Source of the DNA: Ignavibacteriota bacterium
Lineage (GTDB): Bacteria; Bacteroidota; Ignavibacteria; UBA10030; UBA6906
DNA length: 64,000 bases
NCBI GenBank assembly: GCA_963801355.1
Contig: CAWDEM010000008.1
Location: 1,120,001-1,184,000, forward strand
Reading direction: 5' to 3'
The notes beneath the pieces are model-generated. The model was given only the letters and a program-made list of their open reading frames with translations, made no database searches and was not told the origin of the DNA. Positions 5,769-33,911 of this stretch are shown here, one piece after another; the first letter of the stretch is position 1; each line of letters starts with the position of its first letter. The position numbers and the translations under genes were made by a program.

Positions 5769-7085
5769 TCACTTTTCCAGAAACATCTCCTGCCATTCGG
5801 TTTCAATCGTCCGGTGCGGGACCGGCATCGCACCTTCGGTATCCATCTTCTTCCTCAACGTCGACTGAAGTTGAAGCGAGGGACACTCTTTGTGCAGCGG
5901 ATGCGGAATCGCCACTCGCATTCTGCGGTAGATCGACTGAAAGTCCTCTTCCATGATGTTGCCAAACGTCACCGGCAGGAAAACACACGGGTTGACATTC
6001 CCCCGGCTGTCAATACTGAGATGCGATAGCCCTCCCATCATGCATCCCAGCTGCGCCGGGCTTTCTGCGAACGCAACGTAGTGAACGACCGGGTAGTCCC
6101 GATACCGCCTGTGTGTGTTCATTTGGCGGAAGAAATGCAGGAGCTGTTTGCGGTCGTCTTCCGTGAGGAGCACGCCTGGCAGAGCATTGAGATAACCGCC
6201 GCACGGACGGGGCTCGAGGAGTTGAATGAATCCCACACCCAGATTTTTCGCAAGCTCTGCGTAACGGCTGAGATCCCCCGAGCGCACCATCCGCTGTGTC
6301 GCGCACACATTGACATACGTGAAGATACCTGCCTGGCGGAATATGCGGAGCGCTCGCACCGCTTCTTCATGCGAACCCGGATACCCGCGAAGCTCGTCGT
6401 GTCGAGCCGGATCCACATCGTCAAGTCCCACCGCAGCGGCAATGAGTCCCGCCCTTTTCAACTCGAGAGCCCGCTCCAATGTCACACCGTGTCCGGAAGT
6501 GTGCACATGGATATCGGACAAATTCTTATCGGCATACCGCACCAGTTCCAGCAGGTCGTCGAAGCGGTTCATGGGCTCGCCACCTGTGAGTACCAGCGAG
6601 CCCACACCCTGCTTCTGTAGTTGCGCCACGACCTCTTTCAGGCGCGTGAGCGGCAGTTCATCTCCACGGCCGACATTGTGGCGCTCATAACAGTGCTGAC
6701 AGTGCAGATCGCAACGCTGCGTAATGGCCAGAAACACGGAGTCGATGTGTTGCTTCAGCGGCGTTCCTGCAGCACCGACGTTGAGCCCGCCATTTGCCAC
6801 CATGCGATCGAACGCTGCCGATGGGTGGTGCGGGGAAGTAAGGGATGAGAAATACACATCGCCGAATTGCACCAGCTTGCGGAGACCGATGTCGTGAACG
6901 ATCTTTGTTGTATACAACGCACCTGATGTGAGTGGAAAGATTCTGAACAACGGAAAGTCCCGGCGATGGAGGAGATACCGGCCCCACCCGAGCGCGAACT
7001 TCAGATTGAGGTACAAGAACTTCCAGCCGGTGTTGAACGTAAGCCTGGGACCGTGATTGTCAGTCTGGTATTCCATGATCTGCAC
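5769..7085 (-). CDS. Radical SAM protein with SPASM/twitch domain
   Basis: CDLHCQHC, LTGGEP, and C-terminal GCMMGG...GNVNPC...C. Confidence 0.85.
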   Translation of the reverse strand: MQIMEYQTDNHGPRLTFNTGWKFLYLNLKFALGWGRYLLHRRDFPLFRIFPLTSGALYTTKIVHDIGLRKLVQFGDVYFSSLTSPHHPSAAFDRMVANGGLNVGAAGTPLKQHIDSVFLAITQRCDLHCQHCYERHNVGRGDELPLTRLKEVVAQLQKQGVGSLVLTGGEPMNRFDDLLELVRYADKNLSDIHVHTSGHGVTLERALELKRAGLIAAAVGLDDVDPARHDELRGYPGSHEEAVRALRIFRQAGIFTYVNVCATQRMVRSGDLSRYAELAKNLGVGFIQLLEPRPCGGYLNALPGVLLTEDDRKQLLHFFRQMNTHRRYRDYPVVHYVAFAESPAQLGCMMGGLSHLSIDSRGNVNPCVFLPVTFGNIMEEDFQSIYRRMRVAIPHPLHKECPSLQLQSTLRKKMDTEGAMPVPHRTIETEWQEMFLEK

Positions 7086-7110: not shown

Positions 7111-9034
7111 TTACTCAGATTGCGACCGGTTCAATGCCGCCTGCTGTCCGGCTTCCCAGCTTCGATATTCTTCCATTGTCGCCTTCACTATCCGTCCGGG
7201 GTTCATTCCGATGTCATACAGGCGCGCCAGCTGGTCGGGCAGATCCTGAGGCAGATGAAGTTCGTAGTAGCCCCTTGTCTCCAGGTACACCGATCGGACT
7301 GTCGCCGGCGGTTGCGGAGGCGCCTCGAAGCTGATGTTCGCCCAGTCGCCGACCTCCGGCATGGAGTAGTATTTCTCATCGATGCTCGTGAGAGCACCCA
7401 GGATTGAATTCTCTTGTTGATCTTCTGCACGGCGGGCATCGACAGTGGAAGCGTGCATCACCGCCGGCTCTTCATAACTCACGCCGAGGTAGTCGAACGT
7501 CCAGAATCCCTTGGGCGGATCGAAGCGAAGCACGAGCGAATCGCCGACGACATTGCTCACGTCTATCGGGTATACTCTGTCTTCGCTGATGAATGGCCCC
7601 TGTCCCACAATGACACCTTCCTGTTTCCACGACTCCCCTTCCTTCACCCATGTCTTCAAATGGTACATTTCTTCTCTCTCGAGGAACTGTTGCATCTCGA
7701 TAAAGGACTGACTTCCCGGTGTGACCGACTTCAACCAGGCCCCGGCGGTTTGCCCTCTATACTCGACGGTCTTCCGGATCATGTTCGATCCCCACGATGA
7801 GGTGCCGATGTTCGTGATGAGCCACGCCCTTTTTGCATCCACAGGTTTCGGGAGTGTAACCGTGAGTTCATGCCGTCGCAGGTGCGTCGACCTCCCTGCT
7901 TGCGGATGAGAGATGTGTTTGCCACACAACATTGTCGCTTGCCCGCAGAAAATTGGTCAGGCTCATCCCTTTTTCGTCGAATGCGGATGAAACCCCCCGG
8001 ACCTGTTTGAAGGCGTAGAAGTTCCCCTGGAGGTCAGGATACACAAGTGCGTCTGCGGGGTGGTCTACGACAAGTAGTTTCATCCGGTCGATGAATTGAG
8101 TTTCAGGTACCTCGTTCCTCACAAGCAGTCTGTACTCACCATCCACCGGTTTCACGAAGTCTAGCCGTGACAGGTCTGTTCTCGCCAGGCCGGCGCAGAT
8201 TGCGCCGCCAAGAGGCTCTGCGTCAAAGACAAAGCGTTGACCATCAAAGGAGTAAATGAACGGACAGGACTGTTTGGTCGCTATAGCGATGAGCGCGATG
8301 ACGCCGACCACTCCCACGAGGACCAGCAACGTTGCTATGATTGATCCCACAGCATCGGTCGTCTCGATACTGGCATAGAGTACACTGTCAGCGGGCATTT
8401 CGACGTGATTCATCAAAACGTCCCTGCCCATGAACACTGAGGGCCGACGTTCAAAAAAGCCTCCCGAAGAGTCAAACGCGGTCAAATACCCCAATGAGCC
8501 GACAACTTCATATACAGGCCGTTCCGGAGTCTGCGAGAGCTCGCCAACGCCAATGGCGGTAGGGCTCTCAGTGCGGATGGAGTTCACTATATCAATCCGG
8601 TATGACGTCTGGCTTCCGGTACGCGACTTCCCGGTGATCTTCTGTCCCCCCTTGTCATAGCGGCCACCTGGTTTCTGGAAGGTGACCAGGAGGTTGCTGC
8701 GCAAGACCATTTCTGCAATGTATGTGCTGTCCAGGTCCGCGAGGGCAATGATCTTGGGAGGACTCATCCTGCATTGGAGGGAGTCCCCCGACGAGACAAA
8801 GACCGACTTGCCGTCGGTGGACTTCCCCCGGACGCCATCACGGTACGGATAGAATGTCCCGCCGTTTTTATTGAACGTAACCGTGGAGCCATCCAGAAGG
8901 ACAATCTCGACAACTTTCTGTTTGATTCGTTGCGCTTCCTGTCCCGGGACTTTTTGCAGCTCCGTAACTCCGCATCCCATCATGAAGTTCACAAACGCCA
9001 GGAGAATAAACCCGGTAACGATTTGACGGACCAT
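7111..9034 (-). pseudogene. Hypothetical membrane lipoprotein split by a single frameshift (or assembly error)
   Basis: ORF 7868-9034 (lipobox MMGC, TM segment, SCPFIYSFDG) continues in another frame as ...RRHELTVTLPKP (7111-7932). The shift is near 7880. Confidence 0.65.
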
Positions 9035-9082
9035 ATGCGTATCCTTTCGGGTGTCAGACGAAGTTGTGCACCGGATCAGACA

Positions 9083-10237
9083 TCAGAAATGATAACCAAC
9101 GACAAACCCCACGCTCGTCGAGGTGAAGGTCCCCCTTTCGAAAGTGACGTTTTGCACAGAGGGCACGTCTTCCGGAATATACACCAGATCAGCGTTGAAA
9201 CCGACCGAAAGATTACCGGTAAAGAACAATTTGAGTTCAGCATACATCATGGCACTGAATGTCTTCTTCTTCAACCCGACCGGAGTCATGGGCGGTGAGG
9301 ATGAAGGGTAGTAGTCGTAGACGACTCCCGGGGATGCGCTGAGATCGACGGAAGCCATCCCCACCCCCACCCCTATATCCCACTGCAGGCTTCGGCCACC
9401 CAGCAACCATAGCGGTTTGAACACGCCGACCGCGTAGTAACCTCTCCCGTTCAGGTGCATTTCGGAGACGTACGGGGAGTAATACCAGAGTGACGGTTGT
9501 CCCAACCACATCAAGGCGATCCCCGCATCGGCGTAGTCGGTAATAGTATAAGTAAGCTGCAGCTTGCGCATCATGTTCAACGATGACAAGTCCCGCGCAT
9601 AATAGCCACTGTTGGCACCGCCATGAGGCACGGGACCGCTCACCCATGATCCTTGAAAGGAAAAATGAACAGAAGTCTCCCTGCCGGCTTTCTGTCCACT
9701 TTCGCAGAGCTCTTCCCAACGGACTCCCCGTTCTTCGTCGGTTCCCGAAAAATCGAATACCACTTCATTGCTCTGGCTGGTCCCGATGCCATACCCGATC
9801 AGATATCCACCCAGGCAGAAGAGTGCATTGTAAAGGAATGCCTCTCCGGTCCCGCCATTCCCCCCCACGAACAAGAAGGGCTCCCTTTCGTCACTGAGAA
9901 CCAACGCACTCCCCAGGTATGCTGCTGTGATCATTCCGACAACTGCCGGTCCTCCTTTAGAGGGCTTTACTTCGATGGCGACACGGAGCAGATCCCGACG
10001 CGAAATCCGCTCGGAATTTCTTCCAATCTGGATGACCATGGAATCCTGATGGGTACCCACAAACCAGCCAAGCTTCACTGTACCGTCTTTCAGGAGCACC
10101 CGCGTCAACTGGTAGAAGTATCCGGCAGGTTTCAAATTCTGGGATGACTGCGATGGTTGTGATGGCTGGGCCCGGGTGAAAGCAATCGTGCAAAACCCGA
10201 GGAAGATGAACAGGAGGATTCTTTTCATATGACCCAT
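9083..10237 (-). CDS. Hypothetical outer-membrane protein (C-terminal beta-barrel)
   Basis: Signal peptide, alternating beta-strand pattern, terminal ...VVGYHF. Confidence 0.65.
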   Translation of the reverse strand: MGHMKRILLFIFLGFCTIAFTRAQPSQPSQSSQNLKPAGYFYQLTRVLLKDGTVKLGWFVGTHQDSMVIQIGRNSERISRRDLLRVAIEVKPSKGGPAVVGMITAAYLGSALVLSDEREPFLFVGGNGGTGEAFLYNALFCLGGYLIGYGIGTSQSNEVVFDFSGTDEERGVRWEELCESGQKAGRETSVHFSFQGSWVSGPVPHGGANSGYYARDLSSLNMMRKLQLTYTITDYADAGIALMWLGQPSLWYYSPYVSEMHLNGRGYYAVGVFKPLWLLGGRSLQWDIGVGVGMASVDLSASPGVVYDYYPSSSPPMTPVGLKKKTFSAMMYAELKLFFTGNLSVGFNADLVYIPEDVPSVQNVTFERGTFTSTSVGFVVGYHF

Positions 10238-24950: not shown

Positions 24951-27713
24951 CTACTGCATCTTTAGTACCACGAATGTCACATCATCCATCTGCGGGCGAC
25001 CGCCGGCCCAGTCTTTCATTCTTTCCATGAGATGCCTGATAATTTCCTGAGGGTTCTGGTCTGCAACCTCTTTGAACGATTCGACCGTCCTTGGTTCATC
25101 GAGTGTCTCATCGTTTGCGTTGAACATCTCAAGGAAACCATCACTCATGAGCAGCATCACATCTCCTGAACCGAGGGTTGTTTCCTTCGTCTGATATGGA
25201 AAATCCGTAAACCCTCCGAGCGGCATCCCTTTCATGACAAGTTGTTCCACCTCACCTGTTGATGACCTGAAGATGAGTACCGGCGGCATTCCAGCCGATG
25301 AGGCTGTTACCGTATGATCCTTTACCCGCAGCAAGAGCAAGGCCATATAGAGCTGCCCAAGATTCATTCGCTTGAATGCCCTGGTGAATCTTTCAAAGAT
25401 GGTTTGAAAACTGGAGAGGTGTGCGAACTCATGGAAAAGGCCTTTCGTCACCGACACCATCGTTCCTGCCTTTGCCCCATGACCCGTTGCATCGCCGAGT
25501 GCTATGGTCAGGGTCCCGTCCTCGCCAAGGTGAAAGTCATAGTAGTCGCCGCCAACCTCCGTTGCTGTTTCCATTTTCACCGCTATCTCGACGTGCGGTA
25601 TTCGCGGAATTTCCTTCGGCAGCATGGAAAGTTGCACCTGCCGCGCCTCCTCAAGTTCTCTGGTTTTGCGCGCATTATCCGCTTCCAGCATGCGCCGAGC
25701 AAGCTCTTCTTCTTTCGCAAGCCGCTCAGTCTCGATCGCTTTGCGGGAAAGGTCACGAACCTGTATCAGCTGTTCCTCGAGGTTCTTGCTTGTTCTGGCA
25801 AAGTTGCGGGACATGTCGATTGAAAAACAAACACTCATCACCAGCGTGCCGACGATGACAATACCAACGCCCGACAATGGCGAAAGGATGGACAGTTGAA
25901 TCGCCACCTGCCAGACGAGACTCAACATGAACACCGCGAACCCCAGTGCAGCAATCCATTTGTCGCGCCAGCGTTGTCGTCCGGCAACAACAAAGACCCT
26001 GAAAGTCTCGAGTGTCGCCGCGCCGATGAGCACGTACACAATGTAGACGCCTTTCATCCCACCAGGGGGAACAAATAATGCGAATATGGCAAGCACAGCA
26101 CATGTCGCGGCAATGACATAGCCGGTTTTCGGAATCCTAGAGAGGAACCGGGTATAGATCGTCAGCAAACCAAAGACGATTGCGCAACTCAGGAGAGCAA
26201 CTGTTCCCTTTGCGGAATTTAGAAAACCTTCAACAGAAGGGGTAAAGGCACTCTGGAACGACAACCATATGAAGCCCCCCCAGGAGAACATGAAGAGAGC
26301 GAAATAGAGGTTCTCCCTTGGACGCGGCAGAAACAGAAAAAGCAAAAGGTGCAGGACGCCGAGAACGAGCGCAATAACAGGAAAGACAATCTGGGTTACC
26401 GTCATTGTTCTGATTTCTTCAGCCCGCTGTTGAATCATCCCATTGAGATCGCTGGTAAGGATACACGCAAACCCTGCGTCGCCTCCCATGTTAATAAGAT
26501 CGTCCGTGTTGGCATTCGAATAGCGGATGGCGAGAAGATGGTCCCGTCCCTGCCGGAAGACGAGGACCCTCGGGTTGCGTTCGATGAACGATTGCTCCGC
26601 AGTTCCGGCAACGGCCACATCGCCGAAAGCATAGAGCAGGGTTCCATCAAGGTAGACTTCGCAGGCGCCCCCGTGATTGACAATCAAGCCAAGGGGCACA
26701 CTCCAAAGCGAGGAATCCACAACGATGCGCTCACGAAACCATCCAATCCCGCTCCACTTGCTTTCTGGCTTCTGTTCCCTCGTGAGCCGGGCATATGTGA
26801 TTTCCCAGGAGCGATCATCAAACGACGGGTTTGCCCATTCAAGGTCGTCACCGGGGTGGTAACGCCAGTTTTCAATTGTGATTGGAAATTCCGGGCGATA
26901 CTCGAACGCCGGGGCGGACAGAAATGTCCTGGCCCTGCAATCGGATGTATCGATGGCATTTCTTCGGATGAACTTCATCATGTGGTTTGGGGCAAATGCG
27001 ACGGTCCCCAACAGTTGTGGGACGAGCCACACATTATCCGCCATTCCAGCGGACCATTGGATTGTCCCATCACGCTCCATGGCACCGAATATCTTCGATA
27101 CCCCGTCATTGTCATGGAAGCTTACGGCAAAACCGAAGCTTTCACCGACGCCGACATGAACGGCACGGCCTCTGCACGCAATCAATTCCCACTCCAGACG
27201 CAGTTCGAGGGCGTATCCGTCACGCGTTGGCCGGCGGGCATAGTTTCCCGGCAAGGTCGCTTTTCGCGAAAGGAGAGAGTCTCGTTCAGGATAAAGGTTG
27301 TCAACACCCAGAATGTTGGAGGCATCGGCACTGTCCAGAGCAGTCAAGCGGGCATTCACGATTCCGATGAGAGGCTTCGTTGCAGGATCAGGATCGAACT
27401 TCAGTTCGATGCAATCGTTCCACGGCCGGACAATGCTTCCGACATGAACGACGTCATCTTTCACTTCAGCATAGAGGTAGAAGTACTTCTCGTCCCATGC
27501 AGCCCACACATCAGCCGAGAGGTCGGAATCACCATCAGGCTTAGGTCCACTGAGCGAAATGAAATCCAAATGAGAGAGATGGATGTAGCTCTCAGTCGGC
27601 GTGTTAAGGCCGGAATACCATGCATCCTTGCGAGCGTCAATTGCTATTGAGAACTGAGCAACAATTGCGTTGCACGACAGAATTTGGAGCAAGACCAAGA
27701 GTCTGAGAGACAT
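24951..27713 (-). CDS. Membrane-bound SpoIIE/PP2C phosphatase with CBM9-like and sugar-binding extracellular domains and a 7TM region
   Basis: AWDEKYFYLYAEVKDD (CBM9/DOMON-like), WRYHPGDD...GIGWFR, multiple TM helices, EVGGDYYDF, GDATGHG, SDG and DDVT. Confidence 0.88.
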   Translation of the reverse strand: MSLRLLVLLQILSCNAIVAQFSIAIDARKDAWYSGLNTPTESYIHLSHLDFISLSGPKPDGDSDLSADVWAAWDEKYFYLYAEVKDDVVHVGSIVRPWNDCIELKFDPDPATKPLIGIVNARLTALDSADASNILGVDNLYPERDSLLSRKATLPGNYARRPTRDGYALELRLEWELIACRGRAVHVGVGESFGFAVSFHDNDGVSKIFGAMERDGTIQWSAGMADNVWLVPQLLGTVAFAPNHMMKFIRRNAIDTSDCRARTFLSAPAFEYRPEFPITIENWRYHPGDDLEWANPSFDDRSWEITYARLTREQKPESKWSGIGWFRERIVVDSSLWSVPLGLIVNHGGACEVYLDGTLLYAFGDVAVAGTAEQSFIERNPRVLVFRQGRDHLLAIRYSNANTDDLINMGGDAGFACILTSDLNGMIQQRAEEIRTMTVTQIVFPVIALVLGVLHLLLFLFLPRPRENLYFALFMFSWGGFIWLSFQSAFTPSVEGFLNSAKGTVALLSCAIVFGLLTIYTRFLSRIPKTGYVIAATCAVLAIFALFVPPGGMKGVYIVYVLIGAATLETFRVFVVAGRQRWRDKWIAALGFAVFMLSLVWQVAIQLSILSPLSGVGIVIVGTLVMSVCFSIDMSRNFARTSKNLEEQLIQVRDLSRKAIETERLAKEEELARRMLEADNARKTRELEEARQVQLSMLPKEIPRIPHVEIAVKMETATEVGGDYYDFHLGEDGTLTIALGDATGHGAKAGTMVSVTKGLFHEFAHLSSFQTIFERFTRAFKRMNLGQLYMALLLLRVKDHTVTASSAGMPPVLIFRSSTGEVEQLVMKGMPLGGFTDFPYQTKETTLGSGDVMLLMSDGFLEMFNANDETLDEPRTVESFKEVADQNPQEIIRHLMERMKDWAGGRPQMDDVTFVVLKMQ

Positions 27714-28275
27714 CCTCGTACCTCCTTGGTTCCGGATCGGAGCGTTCGGACCAGAGTGACATGTAGGCGACCACCATCATTATGGCATCAAAAACCTCTT
27801 CTTGACTGGTCGCCCCCCACATGTGATGCAGGAATTGCTGCCCCTACTTGTCATACGTGCCAGGATGGCAGAAGATTCTCAGAACCTGGTAATCTCGGGA
27901 AACCGCATATTCCTTATCCGGCTGGCGGTTTCGCGCATTGGGCCAGCTGTAAGGGCCACATGCAAAGGCCCGAGCAAAAAGGCCCTTTGACAAGGGAATG
28001 TGTGACAAGGGAATGGATTGATGGTTTGACAATCCCCCCGTGAAGCCCTATCTTTGCTGCGGACCATCTCTCGGCAAAGCCTCTGTTTCAATTCCTTCCA
28101 GCATCTCCCAGGGGCTTTGTGGATTCTCGAGATGGCCCTGCACCTTGATTTTAGGAGATCTCTCCGTGGTCCGCGAGTCTGTTGTCCGCAATCGATTCTT
28201 CTCGCGGATACTAACCCCCGTAAACGCAGGCTTCTTCTTTACACACTCACCCGAACACCCAACAAGGAGGAAGAG

Positions 28276-29808
28276 ATGAGACCACAACCGAGGGTCTTCA
28301 TCCGATTGGCATATGTTCTTGCCGCCTTTCTTTTGGCGACAGGCTTGCTCGCTGCTCAGACATTCGACGCCATCAAGGGTCAGGTGAAGGAACACATACT
28401 TCCCAACGGCATGAAGTTTCTTGTGCTGGAGCGGCCAGAGGCGCCGGTGGTTTCGTTCCACACCTACGCAGACGTCGGATCATCGAACGAATCGTACGGT
28501 ATCACCGGTATTTCCCACCTGCTGGAGCATCTGGCCTTCAAGGGAACGAAGGTCGTAGGGACGAAGGATTATGCTGCAGAGCAGAAACTCATGGATCAGA
28601 TAGACCGTGTCTATCAGCAGCTCGTGCGGGAACAAACTTCAGTCAAACCGGACAGTGCAAAGATAGTGACGCTGCAGGCGGAGTTCGACAGACTCGGCAA
28701 AGAAGCTCAGGGGCTCGTGGTCGTAGATCAATACAGCGACATGTTGAGGGAGCAGGGCGGCCCCATGATCAATGCGTATACAAGCAACGATGCCACACAG
28801 TACATCAGCAGCCTTCCATCCAACAAGCTGGAATTCTGGATGGCGATGGAATCCGATCGATGGATGAACCCGGTCTTCCGGGAGTTTTACAAAGAACGCA
28901 ATGTCGTCATGGAGGAGCGGCGGCTCGGAGTGGAGACACAGCCGACCGGGAAGCTGGTCGAGGATTTCTTGGCCGTCGCATTCAAGGCACATCCTTACCA
29001 CCACGAAGTGATCGGGCATATGTCCGATCTCCAACGTATCAATCGAGCGGACGTCACAAGCTATTTCCAGAAATTCTACGGACCCAGCAACTTGACTGTG
29101 GCGATTGTCGGGGACGTCAAAGCTGATGAGGTTTTCAGGTTGGCGGATACGTATTTCTCGCGTATCCCCACTGCACCGAAACCTGAGCCCCTGCGGACGA
29201 CTGAGCCCGAGCAGTGGGGTGAAAGGCGTGTGACCGTGGAGGCAATGTCCCAACCGTGGCTGGTGATAGGCTACCACCGCCCGGATATCAACAGCAAGGA
29301 CGATGCTGCGCTGGACGCTATGGCCAACATCCTCGGCCGCGGGCGATCCTCGCGCCTCTACACGAATCTGGTCAAGAACCGGAAGCTCGCCGTCAGTGTC
29401 TCCGCTGGGAATGGATGGCCGGGCAATAAGTACTCCAGTCTCTTTGTGGTCTTCGCCGTGCCTTCCATGGGTCACACGGCAGCTGAGTGCCAGAAGGCTA
29501 TCGAAGCCGAATTGGAAAAAATCAAAACGGAACCGGTGACGGAACAGGAGCTGGCAAAGTACAAACGCTTCACGAGGAAGTATCTGATCGATGGCATGAA
29601 GATGAACAGCAGGATGGCTGCATCCCTTACATTCAACGATGTGATCCGCGGCGACTGGCGAAAAGCATTCGAAATCATCAAAGTTGTCGACTCGGTGACC
29701 ATACCGGACATTCAGGCTGTCGCACAAAAGTATCTGGTCGAGAAGCATCGCACGATCGGGGAAGTCAAACCTGAACCGAAGCCCGAAGAGGGAGGAAAAC
29801 AACAATGA
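28276..29808 (+). CDS. M16 (pitrilysin-family) zinc peptidase, catalytic subunit
   Basis: HLLEH inverted zinc motif, NAYTS, ERNVVMEERR; signal peptide; AGGAGG RBS. Confidence 0.92.
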   Translation: MRPQPRVFIRLAYVLAAFLLATGLLAAQTFDAIKGQVKEHILPNGMKFLVLERPEAPVVSFHTYADVGSSNESYGITGISHLLEHLAFKGTKVVGTKDYAAEQKLMDQIDRVYQQLVREQTSVKPDSAKIVTLQAEFDRLGKEAQGLVVVDQYSDMLREQGGPMINAYTSNDATQYISSLPSNKLEFWMAMESDRWMNPVFREFYKERNVVMEERRLGVETQPTGKLVEDFLAVAFKAHPYHHEVIGHMSDLQRINRADVTSYFQKFYGPSNLTVAIVGDVKADEVFRLADTYFSRIPTAPKPEPLRTTEPEQWGERRVTVEAMSQPWLVIGYHRPDINSKDDAALDAMANILGRGRSSRLYTNLVKNRKLAVSVSAGNGWPGNKYSSLFVVFAVPSMGHTAAECQKAIEAELEKIKTEPVTEQELAKYKRFTRKYLIDGMKMNSRMAASLTFNDVIRGDWRKAFEIIKVVDSVTIPDIQAVAQKYLVEKHRTIGEVKPEPKPEEGGKQQ

Positions 29809-31238
29809 GAACGCCAAGAGTGTTCGTCGCATCATTGGTCATGGTTCTCCTGGCCGGTTTCCTTGGGACGGTCGTCGCACAGAAGGGACCTAAAGAAAAA
29901 TTCACGTTCCCCAAGCTCCATGACATTTCCATGCCGAAAGTCCGGGAGGCAAAGCTCAAGAACGGCATGCGGATCTTCCTTGTGGAAGATCGGCAGTATC
30001 CCACAATCGATCTGCGCGCCATGGTTGGCGCAGCCTCCGAGTTTGACCCCGCGGAAAAGGTCGGACTGGCAAGCTTAACAGGGAGCGTCCTGAGAACCGG
30101 GGGCACCGAAAAGATGACCGGTGATGAAATGGACCAGATGCTCGAGACGATGGGAGCATCGGTAGAAACGGGCATTGGATCCGGCTCAGGATACGTGTAC
30201 GTCTCCGTGTTGAAGGATGACATCGACAAGGGCGTCAATGTCCTCGCCGACATCCTGATGCATCCCGCATTCCGGCAGGAGAAGATCGAGCTCGCAAAAA
30301 TCCAGCAGCGTTCCTTTATCTCCCGTCGCAATGATGATATCTGGGAGATCACTGGCCGTGAGTTCAACACCTTGATCTACGGCAAGGGACATCCCTATGC
30401 GCGCTATCCCGAATTTGCGACGATCGATTCAATCAGCAGGGACGATGTTGTCGCGTTTCACAAAAAGTATTTCCATCCCAACAACATCATCTTCGCGGCG
30501 TGGGGAGATTTCGATGCCAAGCAGATGGAAAAGAAGCTGGAAACGGCCTTCGGCGCCTGGCCAAAGGTGGATATCCCCGTGCCTCCCAAGCCCAAAGTGG
30601 ACTATCAGTATGTGCAGACGGTGAACTACGTGAACAAGCCTGACGTGAACCAGACGCATATCCAGATGGGACATATCGGAGGACAGCTGAACAGCCCGGA
30701 CTATCCGGCCCTGGTGATCATGAACCAGATTCTTTCCACAGAAAGGATGTACAAGGTCATTCGGACGCAGGAAGGTCTCACCTATGCTCCGTGGGGATAC
30801 TATGGAGCGGACTACGACCATCTGGGTGTCTTCAATTGCGGGACGCAGACGAAGTCGCGGTCGACGGTGTACGCTCTCCGCCTGATGCTGAAGGAAGTGA
30901 AACGGATGACAGAAGAACCTGTGACCGATGAAGAGCTCGCTCGTGCCAAGGACACGTATCTGAACAGCTTTGTCTTCAACTTCGACACCAAGAGCAAGAT
31001 CGTCAACCGGATGATGGTGACGGCCTACCACAACTACCCGGTGGATTTCATCAACCAGGTCAAGGACAAGGTCGAGAAGGTAACGAAGGAAGATATTCTC
31101 CGCGTCGCGAAGACCCATCTGCATCCCGAACAGCTCCACATTCTGGTGGTGGGGAAAAAGGAGGAATTTGACGAACCGCTGTCAGTATTGGGAAAGGTTA
31201 ACGAAATCGATATCACCATCCCACAGCCCAAGCACTAG
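29805..31238 (+). CDS. M16 peptidase non-catalytic partner subunit
   Basis: LKNGMRIFL, GLASLTGSVL (no HxxEH), IRTQEGLTY; 4-bp overlap with the upstream gene. Confidence 0.9.
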   Translation: MRTPRVFVASLVMVLLAGFLGTVVAQKGPKEKFTFPKLHDISMPKVREAKLKNGMRIFLVEDRQYPTIDLRAMVGAASEFDPAEKVGLASLTGSVLRTGGTEKMTGDEMDQMLETMGASVETGIGSGSGYVYVSVLKDDIDKGVNVLADILMHPAFRQEKIELAKIQQRSFISRRNDDIWEITGREFNTLIYGKGHPYARYPEFATIDSISRDDVVAFHKKYFHPNNIIFAAWGDFDAKQMEKKLETAFGAWPKVDIPVPPKPKVDYQYVQTVNYVNKPDVNQTHIQMGHIGGQLNSPDYPALVIMNQILSTERMYKVIRTQEGLTYAPWGYYGADYDHLGVFNCGTQTKSRSTVYALRLMLKEVKRMTEEPVTDEELARAKDTYLNSFVFNFDTKSKIVNRMMVTAYHNYPVDFINQVKDKVEKVTKEDILRVAKTHLHPEQLHILVVGKKEEFDEPLSVLGKVNEIDITIPQPKH

Positions 31239-31451: not shown

Positions 31452-31719
31452 CTGCATCCGGTAGAAGTACATGCCGCTTGACAGACCTGACGCGTCGCAC
31501 TTGACTTCGTGAGCCCCCACTTGCCTCCTCTCGTTCACCAGTGAGACAAACCGACGCCTGAAAATGTCATAAATCGTCAGGGTCCCGTGTGATGCTCTCG
31601 GCAACTCTCACTTGATGATCGTGGAAGGATTGAAGTGATTCGGGGCATTTTGGCACATCGATCGTGATCGATTTGTGATTACAGGAGCAAATTCGGACGG
31701 ATTCTTGGTTATGCTGCAG

Positions 31720-31748
31720 TTGACAGGCGGTGTAAAGAATAGTAGATT
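31720..31748 (+). promoter_or_regulatory. Sigma-70-type promoter of the selenoprotein/DsbD-N operon
   Basis: TTGACA (31720-31725), 17 nt, TAGATT (31743-31748). Confidence 0.55.
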
Positions 31749-31801
31749 TGCATGAGGGACGAGGGGGCGAACCGAACACACCATCGTGGAGAATCATCAC
31801 C

Positions 31802-33331
31802 ATGCAAAAGCAACTCACTGGATTGGCGGTGCTCGTCGCATTGGTCTCGACTGCCTCCGCTCAGAACTGGTTCAAGGGAAGCCTCGACGACGCTCTCGCT
31901 AAGGCAAAGACCGAGAACAAAAAGGTGCTCGTGGATTTCTTCTCTCCTGGCTGAGGTGGCTGTAAATTGCTGGGTCAGCAATATTTCGAGAACCAAAAGT
32001 TTCAGGATTACTTCGGCACTCACTTCGTGATGTTCCGAGCCGACAGGACACAGAAAGTTGGCGAGGAAATCTTCAAGAAGTTCAACATCATGGGCACCCC
32101 AACCGTGATGATCCTCGATTCAGACGGATCCGAGGTTGATTGGCACGTTGGGTATGGTCCCCCGCCCGAGAAATTCCACGAGCGCATCGACAAGTCTTAC
32201 AGAGGAATTGAGACGTTCAAATTTTACGCGGATCAGTATGCCAAAGATCCAAAGAATCTTGACGTCGTCTTCCGCCTGGCTCAAAAGCACGGCGACCGGT
32301 ACGATCAGGGCAAGGCCACCCCGTTGTACAGAGAAGTGCTCGCGATTGATCCCGATGGGAAGAAAGGAAGCACAAATTATAACAAGACACAGGTGTCGTA
32401 CACTCAGTATGCCGAGTTCCAGATAGCTTCGTTGGCTCTCTACGCGGCAAACGGAGGCCCCGCGGGATTCAAATCATTTATCGCGAAGTATCGGGGCGGC
32501 GAACTGGCTAAGTCGGCGTACCAGCGTCTTGCGTCCTTCTATTTGAGTTCAACCGCCAATGACACAGTGACACAATTCTATGAGGAAGCGATCAAGGAGT
32601 ACCCGAACGACGCAAGTCTCCTCGGTACTTATGTCGAGTATGTCAACAACAGCAAGCAGAATGTCGATAGGGGCATCGAGGTCGCTGAGAAGATTATGGA
32701 GCTCATGACGTACAGGAAGGATCCAAGGTACGTCGGGGCCCTTGCCAAACTCTACGTCCTCAAAGGAGACAAAGCAAAGGCCGACAGCGTGTATGGCAAA
32801 GAATTCATCGACAATCAGGTATCTTCCCTTTCTTACAGTCTCATCGACTATGCCAACTTCTGGGCCGGGCAGAACATGAATGCTGGGAGCGCACTTGCAA
32901 TGGCCGAGATGTCTCTCAAGCTGAACCCGGATAATTCCTATCTGCTTCGGCGGGCCGCTGAGGTCTGCAGCAAACTCAACAAGCTGGATAGCGCGCTTGA
33001 GTTCTTCGGGCCGGAGTTTGCCGAGAAGAACATCGACGACGCCAATAGACTCTACAGCTACGCGAGTTTCTGGGCGGGCGAGGGGAAGAACCTCAAGAGT
33101 GCACTTGCAGCCGCCAAGAAAGTGGTAGAGCTCTCACCGACTACTCCATCCTACTGGGGGGTTCTTGCTACAGCTCACCAGAAGATGAAGAACTACGATG
33201 AGGCAATCAAAGCGGCAGGGAAAGCAGTCGAATTGGCGGATGACAACCGGAAGGCGTACTACAAAAGCAGGCTCGATGCCATCACGCAGGCCCGCCAGAC
33301 AGACGGTGGGCAGCCGATAGAGGGGAAATAG
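31802..33331 (+). CDS. Exported thioredoxin-fold (UxxC) selenoprotein with C-terminal TPR repeats, 509 aa, Sec51
   Basis: Signal peptide, then ...KVLVDFFSPG-TGA-GGC-KLL... in one frame; cis-Pro loop 'GTPTVMILD'; SECIS-like hairpin right after the UGA; TPR helices downstream. Confidence 0.88.
31952..31987 (+). promoter_or_regulatory. In-frame UGA with bacterial SECIS-like stem-loop
   Basis: TGA at 31952-31954; perfect stem ATTGCTG (31966-31972) / CAGCAAT (31976-31982) with a G-starting loop GGT, 18 nt after the UGA. Confidence 0.8.
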
Positions 33332-33344
33332 AAGTAGAACCGGA

Positions 33345-33911
33345 TTGCTTGGAGCACCCGTGGCGATCAAAAGAAGTGGTCTGGGGATACTGGTATGGTT
33401 TCTTGTTGGCATGCGTGTTGTGATTGCGCAACCACCATCGAGTGTGGTTTCGGTGACTCTCGACAAGAACAATGTGCACGTGACTGCCGGAGCAGAATTC
33501 ACAGTCGTATTGAATGCAACGATCGCAGCCGGCTGGCACATCAATTCCAGCAAGCCGAGTGAGGAGTCACTCATTCCTACCTGCATCGACGCAAAAGGCA
33601 AGTCAATCACACTCGTCAGTGTCGAGTATCCGAAGGCTGAAGATATCAAGCTCGGGATTTCCGATAGCCCTCTTTCAGTATTTGAAGGTAACTGTCAGTT
33701 TACGCTCACCCTCAAAATCGGTGACGCACTGCAGAGTGGCAGAGAAGCGACGGCGGTCATCTTGTACTACCAGGCGTGCAATGATCAGATCTGCATGCCT
33801 CCGACGAGTGTCAGAGCGACGCTCCTCGTTGATGTCGAAGCGAACGCGAAGAAAAAGCCCTCATTGGATGGCACGGCCACACCAGGAACCGGCCGGTCCG
33901 GCTCTCCGTAG
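33345..33911 (+). CDS. Stand-alone DsbD N-terminal (alpha, 'disulfide bond corrector') domain protein
   Basis: GWHINS, VEYP, YYQACNDQICMPP (C-x4-C); hydrophobic N-terminus. Exact start uncertain. Confidence 0.82.
   Translation: MLGAPVAIKRSGLGILVWFLVGMRVVIAQPPSSVVSVTLDKNNVHVTAGAEFTVVLNATIAAGWHINSSKPSEESLIPTCIDAKGKSITLVSVEYPKAEDIKLGISDSPLSVFEGNCQFTLTLKIGDALQSGREATAVILYYQACNDQICMPPTSVRATLLVDVEANAKKKPSLDGTATPGTGRSGSP

Follow-up and report, generated by a model that had tools for sequence, protein, structure and literature searches.

When an open reading frame (ORF) stops at a TGA and another resumes in the same frame a few codons later, are these two genes or the halves of one whose TGA encodes selenocysteine (Sec)? 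The question is raised by positions 31802-33911 of a stretch of 64,000 nucleotides from an Ignavibacteriota bacterium (contig CAWDEM010000008.1 of assembly GCA_963801355.1), the whole of which is referred to as the window. Its ORF list has 31748..31954 (68 aa) and 31967..33331 (454 aa), in one frame and divided by the TGA at 31952-31954, just as had been claimed in an earlier prediction, made from the DNA alone, of a hidden, exported selenoprotein with a thioredoxin domain and tetratricopeptide repeats (TPR), paired with a stand-alone DsbD-alpha domain. Read through from ATG 31802 to the stop ending at 33331, the window sequence is a single frame with one TGA, and the predicted product of 509 aa is recovered, terminated by TAG and with U51 as its sole recoded codon. 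With TGA translated as U, that residue lies in the context KKVLVDFFSPG-U-GG-C-KLLGQQYF, so that the apparent stop does sit at the first Cys of a thioredoxin CxxC. To judge from comparison of the sequences, the in-frame UGA is very probably a selenocysteine codon and the hidden selenoprotein real, and the best explanation of the whole, which we consider likely, is one gene for an exported Sec-containing thioredoxin-TPR oxidoreductase. Its parts are as follows.

31802..33331, + strand: coding sequence of the proposed thioredoxin-TPR selenoprotein; single frame with one TGA, 509 aa, TAG stop
31802..31861, + strand: putative signal peptide, residues 1-20 (MQKQLTGLAVLVALVSTASA / Q), read from the sequence by eye
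31862..32206, + strand: thioredoxin-fold domain, about residues 21-135, from Pfam and from DSSP on a structural model
31952..31954, + strand: UGA as the probable selenocysteine codon (U51), from TGA in homologous copies and Cys in remote homologues and in the database protein P0124
31952..31963, + strand: redox motif U-G-G-C, at the N-terminus of helix 52-61
31966..31982, + strand: hairpin resembling a selenocysteine insertion sequence (SECIS), ATTGCTG/GGT/CAGCAAT with a 7-bp stem, from conservation and covariation
32096..32104, + strand: cis-Pro loop T99-P100-T101, invariant in a 51-row alignment (A3) and preceding strand 101-105
32216..33304, + strand: all-helical TPR region, residues 139-501, from Pfam (TPR_19, TPR_8, TPR_2, TPR_1 and others) and model helices

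The evidence that carries this reading begins with the column occupied by U51. A genome scan with one genome per species recovered 80 loci, with 94 high-scoring segment pairs (HSPs) covering residue 51; these loci come mostly from metagenome-assembled genomes (MAGs) of Candidatus Aminicenantes, along with a few of Ignavibacteriota and Bacteroidota. An in-frame TGA is present in all 94 of the HSPs, at the aligned codon in 90 and one codon later in the remaining four, in which a one-residue insertion precedes it. A second scan, of metagenome contigs and with P0073, a database protein recorded with Trp at this column, as the query, likewise gave 80 loci, 79 of them covering the codon, with 94 HSPs; here too TGA is found in 94/94 (79/80 loci), and both TGG and TGC in none. 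Combined, 188/188 copies, reaching down to ~40% identity, have an in-frame TGA at the site and 0/188 have TGG, with the proviso that the two collections may overlap in their source assemblies and the 188 copies are thus not all independent. The second Cys codon of the motif (T-G-Y; columns 16-18 of alignment A2) is similarly constrained, its T16 and G17 being invariant in 95/95 sequences. The part of the gene upstream of the TGA is evidently coding as well: 90 of 94 homologous genes are complete and of the same layout, with a start ~150 nt upstream of the TGA, and beyond the N-terminus they conserve (N)WFKG(S/T)LD(E/D)A...AK...K.VL.DF. Contigs of near-identical environmental relatives (X2 and X3, covering 31858-32121) show no difference at 31952-31954 among the differences listed, with 83 more lying outside the listing. 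A database protein of 267 aa, P0189, is similar to the gene together with its upstream region and passes the site in another frame, which suggests that it comes from a close relative whose assembly is riddled with insertions and deletions.

The original prediction had anticipated that homologues would have either another in-frame TGA or Cys at position 51, and both are found. Besides the TGA copies, 18 of 200 other genomes sampled in the same class hold remote homologues, 23-31% identical and with no stop, and in 18/18 of these a Cys is aligned to U51, within W-C-x-W-C. One of the Cys forms (L025, 356 aa) has a signal peptide followed by Thioredoxin_2 and TPR_19/TPR_20, a layout like that of the window protein. 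Closer to the window protein is P0124, also of 509 aa, which shows 41% identity to it across 436 residues without a gap and reads C-Q-G-C at the site. It further has LLSRQ where all the Sec forms have LL-(G/V/D)-(Q/E)-Q, i.e., at the residues encoded by the SECIS-like hairpin, as would be expected if the RNA constrains this stretch only when Sec is used. P0124, and a Ser-bearing fragment considered below, were picked out in a profile search over 1.84 billion representatives, the use of which was limited to this: the profile of 448 positions leaves the Sec column uncovered, most of its rows starting past the UGA, and the matches (45,390 at E 1e-3, 4,985 at 1e-10 and 230 at 1e-30) mostly reflect TPR similarity.

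A bacterial SECIS lies immediately 3' of the Sec UGA and has a G in its apical loop. A stem-loop of this description, with such a G, is present just 3' of the UGA in the window: the perfect 7-bp stem with a GGT loop that had been predicted is borne out at 31966-31982, with the stem beginning 11 nt and the loop 18 nt past the A of the UGA. Its conservation was assessed in a gap-free alignment of 95 sequences (the window and 94 copies), which takes in the UGA together with the 6 nt preceding and the 51 nt following it. From this alignment RNAalifold recovers precisely the 7-bp stem, no pair is broken in 7 pairs x 95 sequences, and the first loop base, G, is invariant. Moreover, compensatory changes occur at three of the pairs: C-G/U-A in 12 sequences, G-C/C-G in 11 and A-U/C-G in 2. 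When an 8-pair version was scored for covariation over 89 distinct rows, 96.9% of the cells were paired, as against 14.7-63.9% when the 3' partner was slid by 1-3 columns, and the covariation score was 0.193 against a shuffled mean of 0.083, with neither the score nor the paired percentage reached by any of 500 shuffles. The C-G/U-A switch is a synonymous pair, Leu CTG/TTG going with Gln CAG/CAA, and in the G-C/C-G switch a silent change of the Leu codon (CTG/CTC) goes along with the replacement of Gln by Glu. On the family tree, both of the alternative pair states are found in several separate clades and therefore do not go back to one inherited event. The 17-nt hairpin folded alone has -5.8 kcal/mol (z = -4.08), a value matched by 0/200 shuffles.

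Other observations count against the hairpin as a SECIS. The folding energy is unremarkable in context, both for 39 nt (z = -0.73, with 45/200 shuffles as good) and for 71 nt (z = -0.66, 41/200), and among the homologous 39-mers the minimum-energy fold differs from the conserved hairpin in two (L063 and L084) and departs from it partly in a third (L065). A search of Rfam with 31700-32200 at E up to 10 found no relevant family, the best match (E 7.7) being unrelated. In addition, the stem is made of Leu-Leu-x-Gln-Gln codons, and a constraint at the protein level therefore contributes to its conservation; the constraints on RNA and protein can be separated only by the TTG/CAA-CTG/CAG covariation and by the swap of GC to CG that is coupled to the Q-to-E replacement. 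Thus, the case for a SECIS rests on conservation and covariation, since the folding energy in context is no better than that of shuffles.

The genome has the means to decode such a codon. The assembly that includes the window (4.8 Mb in 8 contigs, rated 100% complete) contains all four of selA, selB, selC and selD, whose presence the prediction had made a test of itself, in one cluster at C4:1340671-1347278 and all over the curated cut-offs: tRNA-Sec at C4:1340671-1340765 (67.9 bits against a cut-off of 47; called by ARAGORN as tRNA-SeC with anticodon tca), selD at C4:1340952-1341872 (320.7 bits), selB (359.5 bits) and selA (584.4 bits). The selD gene, which adjoins that for tRNA-Sec, itself has one in-frame TGA (locus L017), SelD of this genome being a selenoprotein too. 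The cluster is on another contig than the gene in the window. The window has 34 ORFs with a length of 300 aa and above, and TGA terminates 17 of them; it is therefore a common stop here, and its recoding would be site-specific.

The protein that results from reading through the codon has the anatomy of an exported thioredoxin with a long helical arm. Its N-terminus, M-K/R-K/R with a hydrophobic stretch and small-x-small before Q/E, recurs in 88 of 90 complete homologues, the other two having shorter N-termini due to the start codon chosen, and residues 1-20 are disordered in the model, with a predicted local distance difference test score (pLDDT) below 50. Pfam matches to Thioredoxin_2 (PF13098; 52.7 bits against a cut-off of 27), Thioredoxin_7 (PF13899; 44.4 against 27) and Thioredoxin (PF00085; 32.4 against 23.5) span residues 25-126, and many TPR families match from about 230 to 490. 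An AlphaFold2 model built on the 51-row alignment has a pLDDT of 91.1, including across the UGA junction, and a predicted template modelling score of 0.77, with unbroken helices over residues 139-501. DSSP assigns to it strands 41-47, 75-81, 101-105 and 111-116 and helices 52-61, 85-93 and 122-133; in this model the thioredoxin fold straddles the TGA, strand 41-47 lying before and helix 52-61 after it. As in thioredoxins, the redox dyad U51-x-x-C54 is located at the N-terminal end of the first long helix, while a Pro loop precedes the third strand. This is the predicted GTPT loop, present at residues 98-101, of which T99, P100 and T101 are invariant; from the modelled fold, P100 would be in the cis form. 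Taken together, the TGA/Cys column, the covarying hairpin, the sel genes and the signal-peptide-like N-termini support the central claim of a hidden exported thioredoxin-TPR selenoprotein with a SECIS.

In a search of PDB sequences, the best match is to a 'putative disulphide-isomerase' of 130 aa (2kuc, E 5e-14), and structures of DsbD gamma (4ip1, 1uc7 and 2fwe) are also matched, at E ~2e-4. The best NCBIfam matches are sub-threshold, to the C-terminal gamma part of DsbD (PRK00293, 465-553 of 574, E 5.4e-12) and to that of TsoB, a DsbD-like selenoprotein (451-568 of 572, E 3e-12). With the whole model, Foldseek retrieved from the PDB generic TPR superhelices only (OGT, SPINDLY and subunits of APC/C) and no specific relative. 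Within the TPR region a conserved motif Y-A-x-F-W...N-x-x-S-A-L occurs twice, at residues 350-364 (32849-32893) and 420-435 (33059-33106). Two homologues of 576 aa (L077 and L079) have a ~70-residue insertion that is seemingly a third copy of it.

Downstream of this gene, the ORF for the predicted DsbD-alpha domain with its C-x4-C is indeed present, beginning 13 nt past the TAG stop codon (14 nt when counted from the final base of that codon).

33345..33911, + strand: stand-alone DsbD_N (DsbD-alpha-like) protein of 188 aa (PF11412); TTG start, alternative GTG 33362
33777..33794, + strand: Cys145-x4-Cys150 of the DsbD_N protein (YQACNDQICMPP), from alignment A4

The match to PF11412 has E 1.8e-10 and 41.3 bits against a cut-off of 25 (41.8 bits in a search of the whole genome), and the N-terminus is signal-peptide-like by eye, with KR, a hydrophobic stretch and VIA-Q. 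Ten such proteins from the window and related loci were aligned: both Cys are present in 9/9 rows of A4 that reach the column, the tenth ending at a contig end, and a PGWH motif is also conserved across the ten. DsbD_N genes are rare in this 4.8-Mb genome, with 2 matches in all, the second being the alpha domain that belongs to a canonical DsbD (732 aa, DsbD_N + DsbD_TM + Thioredoxin_7); a CcdA-like protein is also encoded elsewhere in the genome.

To see how far the pairing extends, an iterated profile was run over all the flank ORFs of the 80 genome loci; targeted searches took the place of an all-against-all clustering of these ORFs, with which false antisense ORFs from GC-rich contigs had interfered. 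A DsbD_N-like ORF is found in the flanks of 9 of the 80. It is directly downstream in six (L048, L050, L058, L060, L063 and L083), past a 676-aa ORF without a Pfam match in L056 (L056:5669-7699), inside a sel operon, ~2.2 kb downstream in L091, a gap similar in size to that of L056, and upstream on the other strand in L049. In a FastTree phylogeny of 91 members all the DsbD_N-linked copies, including that of the window, group together in a subgroup of 25 rows that has a support of 89 and little resolution within, and the window copy belongs to a well-supported five-row clade with MAGs labelled Bacteroidota or Ignavibacteriota and L061 (NCBI label Eubacteriales). The claim of a pairing thus holds in part, the adjacency in the window being borne out and its recurrence being confined to 9/80 loci. 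Speaking against a fixed partnership, the pairing is absent from 71/80 loci, the closest relatives among the flanks read, L040 (78% identical) and L041, are without DsbD_N, and the DsbD_N protein of the window is just 17-26% identical to the other nine. These patterns suggest a link that is real but partial, and a moderate sign of functional partnership, since DsbD_N genes are rare and yet the adjacency recurs. About 870 nt downstream in L040, where the window has DsbD_N, there is a 549-aa protein (L040:6377-8026) with a C-terminal AhpC-TSA/Redoxin/Thioredoxin_8 region.

The same flanks connect the gene with Sec synthesis in a minority of loci. One or more sel genes stand beside it in 8 of the 80 (L047, L049, L050, L054, L056, L063, L083 and L091) and none in the flanks of the other 72, the window included. 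On contigs of sufficient length the genes run selA - selD - Trx-TPR(U) - DsbD_N - (marR) - selB, an example being L063:1119-8819 of an Aminicenantes MAG, in which the selenoprotein gene is inside the operon for the Sec machinery. In L056, L063, L083 and L091, as well as in L054 without DsbD_N, the gene has selD on one side and selB on the other, and 5 of the 9 DsbD_N-paired loci have the pair between selD and selB. In L054 the place of DsbD_N is taken by a Zn_ribbon_8 gene (5784-5999, - strand) and a MarR-like gene (6104-6517, + strand). The gene also stands in tandem in several Aminicenantes loci: L075:2280-9085 has four consecutive copies of the selenoprotein gene, and L065, L066, L067, L073, L081, L082, L087, L093, L097, L100 and L119 have two each, in every case with their own TGA and hairpin.

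From these features we infer that Sec is inserted, that the protein is exported and carries out redox chemistry, that its TPR binds clients, and that DsbD_N is co-transcribed with it and acts as its partner; these inferences may be joined into one scheme. The UGA at 31952 would be decoded as Sec by SelB with Sec-tRNA(Sec), recruited via the hairpin at 31966-31982, as the anatomy of the site and the classical mechanism of bacteria suggest. Within the envelope, the Sec51 selenolate would attack disulfides or other oxidised sulfur of client proteins, and Cys54 would resolve the mixed selenosulfide. Sec has a low pKa and high nucleophilicity, properties that would favour rapid reduction or isomerisation of envelope cysteines once these are oxidised. 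The TPR arm of ~365 residues probably recruits the clients, after the manner of chaperedoxins such as CnoX/YbbN though here in a protein for export, and the repeated Y-A-x-F-W...N-x-x-S-A-L motif may mark a client-binding groove. The gene at 33345-33911 is probably co-transcribed with that for the selenoprotein, and its product could be the redox partner that joins the selenoprotein to the electron supply of the membrane, a proposal that we hold tentatively and at slightly under even chances. Upstream, a sigma-70-like site at 31720-31748 has 10/12 matches, a quality of which the promoter scan expects 1.5 by chance, and is uninformative; the terminator scan found no terminator-like site after 33911.

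Two other readings of the TGA leave selenium out. Gene callers take it for a real stop, which would make the locus either a pseudogene or a 50-residue exported peptide followed by a TPR protein from TTG 31967; accordingly, 116 of the best 120 database homologues are proteins of 312-458 aa, covering at most 89% of the query, and P0039 (520 aa), the 117th of the 120, starts past the UGA position too. A nonsense mutation is not expected at one and the same codon in every copy of so divergent a set, however, and the modelled thioredoxin fold needs residues on both sides of the TGA; a start past the UGA would give a product without the signal peptide, the first strand and the first active-site residue, and the Cys forms are uninterrupted. 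These points make a true stop extremely improbable. It is also very improbable that the TGA is read as Trp, Gly or Cys by way of a variant code or leaky read-through, with no selenium involved. This has on its side the only three full-length entries among the best 120, P0017, P0033 and P0073, which come from contigs of 1.7-2.7 kb and have Trp at the column, an outcome that the original prediction had named as telling against it. In the database, then, that outcome is met with in three entries; in the DNA of the 188 copies it is not, the codon never being TGG. The Trp is best read as a TGA called under another code by a metagenome gene caller, because loci 82-87% identical to the three proteins carry TGA, as do all 94 copies retrieved with P0073 as the query. 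A standard amino acid also sits poorly with the use of TGA as the stop of half the long ORFs of the window, i.e., not as sense in general, with the complete selABCD set, and with a covarying hairpin where recruitment of SelB is expected. Weighing against Sec, along with these Trp entries, are a 153-aa fragment (P0250) with Ser at the column and the outcome of a search of sequencing runs, in which no RNA run was listed as containing the stretch and no run of any kind had more than 0.15 of the sampled words.

Granted the selenoprotein, the part played by its neighbour admits of other views. The relay might be reversed, a gamma-like thioredoxin domain reducing DsbD_N and DsbD_N in turn handing the electrons to other envelope proteins, or the adjacency might be incidental; we regard this as rather unlikely, with a chance that is nonetheless appreciable. 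In E. coli DsbD, gamma reduces alpha. As the thioredoxin domain of the window protein scores best against DsbD gamma, the donor to alpha there, among NCBIfam models (with TsoB) and has DsbD gamma among its PDB sequence matches, electrons may run in either direction, and the pairing is missing at 71/80 loci. Set against this, the NCBIfam scores of gamma type are far below the cut-offs (45 bits against 330 and 805), and DsbD-alpha reduces several thioredoxin-fold proteins, so that the direction does not follow from a likeness to gamma; moreover, the adjacency recurs in two distant lineages though the host genome has only the two DsbD_N matches. A more remote prospect, and in our estimate an improbable one, is that the exported Sec protein and DsbD_N make up a selenium-dependent envelope module of the Sec pathway itself, which would capture, bind or reduce selenium in oxidised form (selenite, selenotrisulfides) outside the cytoplasm, as a supply for SelD. 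It draws on the 8/80 loci with adjoining sel genes and on the position between selD and selB. It has to contend with the 72 loci that have no sel gene in their flanks and a host sel cluster on another contig, and co-transfer by itself can bring a selenoprotein gene to lie beside sel genes. Loci with as many as four paralogues in tandem are more in keeping with an oxidoreductase diversified for its clients than with a carrier of a single substrate, and the covered parts of a paper on candidate selenium-metabolism genes have no mention of thioredoxin, DsbD or TPR (PMC5322559).

An exported Sec oxidoreductase, the reading preferred here, has recognisable relations among known systems. DsbD, with its alpha, transmembrane and gamma parts, is alike in having a DsbD_N domain with a Cys pair beside a domain of Thioredoxin_7/Thioredoxin_2 type, both apparently exported; it differs in that the window pair are separate soluble proteins without a membrane domain, the Sec site being fused to TPR. 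The CxxxxC of the window DsbD_N has one residue fewer than the spacing in E. coli DsbD-alpha. The chaperedoxin CnoX/YbbN is a cytoplasmic thioredoxin-TPR holdase, with an N-terminal thioredoxin and then TPR. The window protein shares this order, with TPR_19 (PF14559) as the top TPR family here and TPR_20 (PF14561) in homologues and L025, and differs in its putative signal for export, its Sec site and a TPR region of roughly double the length; the Foldseek matches listed include no structure of CnoX, and there is no specific profile match. Over the thioredoxin domain there is a weak likeness to three models of thioredoxin-type (seleno)proteins, namely to TsoB (NF045694, E 3e-12), to VPGUxxT type 2 (NF041383, 1.1e-4) and to Trx7/PDZ (NF041199, 1.7e-3), and membership in these was rejected at 45.4, 21.9 and 17.4 bits against cut-offs of 805, 275 and 300. 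The SECIS of E. coli fdhF has an 11-nt spacing and a G(U) in its apical loop. Like it, the window hairpin lies within the coding sequence, 11 nt past the UGA, and has an apical-loop G (and U); unlike it, it has 7 bp, a 3-nt loop, no evident bulged base and no Rfam match.

Among catalogued selenoproteins the nearest description is that of the 'Thiol:disulfide interchange protein', with PF13098 and UxxC, listed in Table 1 of a 2026 review of 119 prokaryotic selenoprotein families (PMC13188914) and, in an earlier account, predicted in Geobacter and Syntrophus (PMC1794560). Compared by description only, the two agree in Thioredoxin_2 (PF13098) as the top domain, in UxxC and in Sec for the first Cys, both being homologues of thiol oxidoreductases with a thioredoxin fold, and they differ in the ~365 aa of TPR and the signal peptide of the window protein, as well as in distribution, the window type being mainly in MAGs of Candidatus Aminicenantes, Ignavibacteriota and Bacteroidota rather than in Geobacter and Syntrophus. 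TPR or tetratricopeptide is absent from the main text of the review, and such a protein goes unmentioned in the portions covered of the deep-Sep paper (PMC12013277) and of the paper on candidate selenium-metabolism genes (PMC5322559). No literature was found that links a selenoprotein with Aminicenantes or describes a TPR-thioredoxin selenoprotein, supplementary tables not being covered. The family thus appears to be uncatalogued, in that it is missing from the 119-family inventory, as far as the review's main text goes, and from the NCBIfam selenoprotein models. It is a new architectural variant of the UxxC thioredoxin-fold selenoproteins, with known chemistry, and not a new kind.

The rest of the window adds some neighbours. 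Two genes for M16 peptidases of 584 and 477 aa (Peptidase_M16 + M16_C) occupy 28054-31238 (+ strand), ~560 nt upstream of the selenoprotein gene, and 24951-27713 (- strand) encodes a 920-aa protein with CBM9-like carbohydrate-binding and SpoIIE-type phosphatase domains. A crude scan of the window for TGA-split genes returned 28 candidates, this gene among them, and the remainder look like noise. One of those rejected, at 9083-9085 (- strand), is in fact two ordinary adjacent genes in the same frame; these neighbours of 388 and 384 aa (7868-10237, - strand) have a TGA and 48 nt between them.

In principle a thioredoxin-fold selenoprotein is unsurprising, and the result is useful for annotation and for selenoproteome counts. 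Public databases hold the family almost only as truncated 'tetratricopeptide repeat proteins', a RefSeq/nr copy being one such entry of 446 aa, and the selenoproteomes of Aminicenantes and Ignavibacteria-like bacteria are therefore under-counted; the compact hairpin, YUGCUS-GNY-SAGCAR, offers a simple search handle for their re-annotation. Most selenoprotein families are dominated by Cys forms. The close family here is unusual in this light, being nearly all-Sec: Cys was found in one protein at 41% identity and otherwise in those at 31% or below. Were the pair a selenium-capture module after all, it would supply a first step that is missing from selenium assimilation in bacteria, and a general redox repair of the envelope would have recruited the tandem paralogues of other loci at a later time. 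The recurrent link with DsbD-alpha, sometimes within the sel operon itself, provides a testable entry to the use of selenium in the bacterial envelope.

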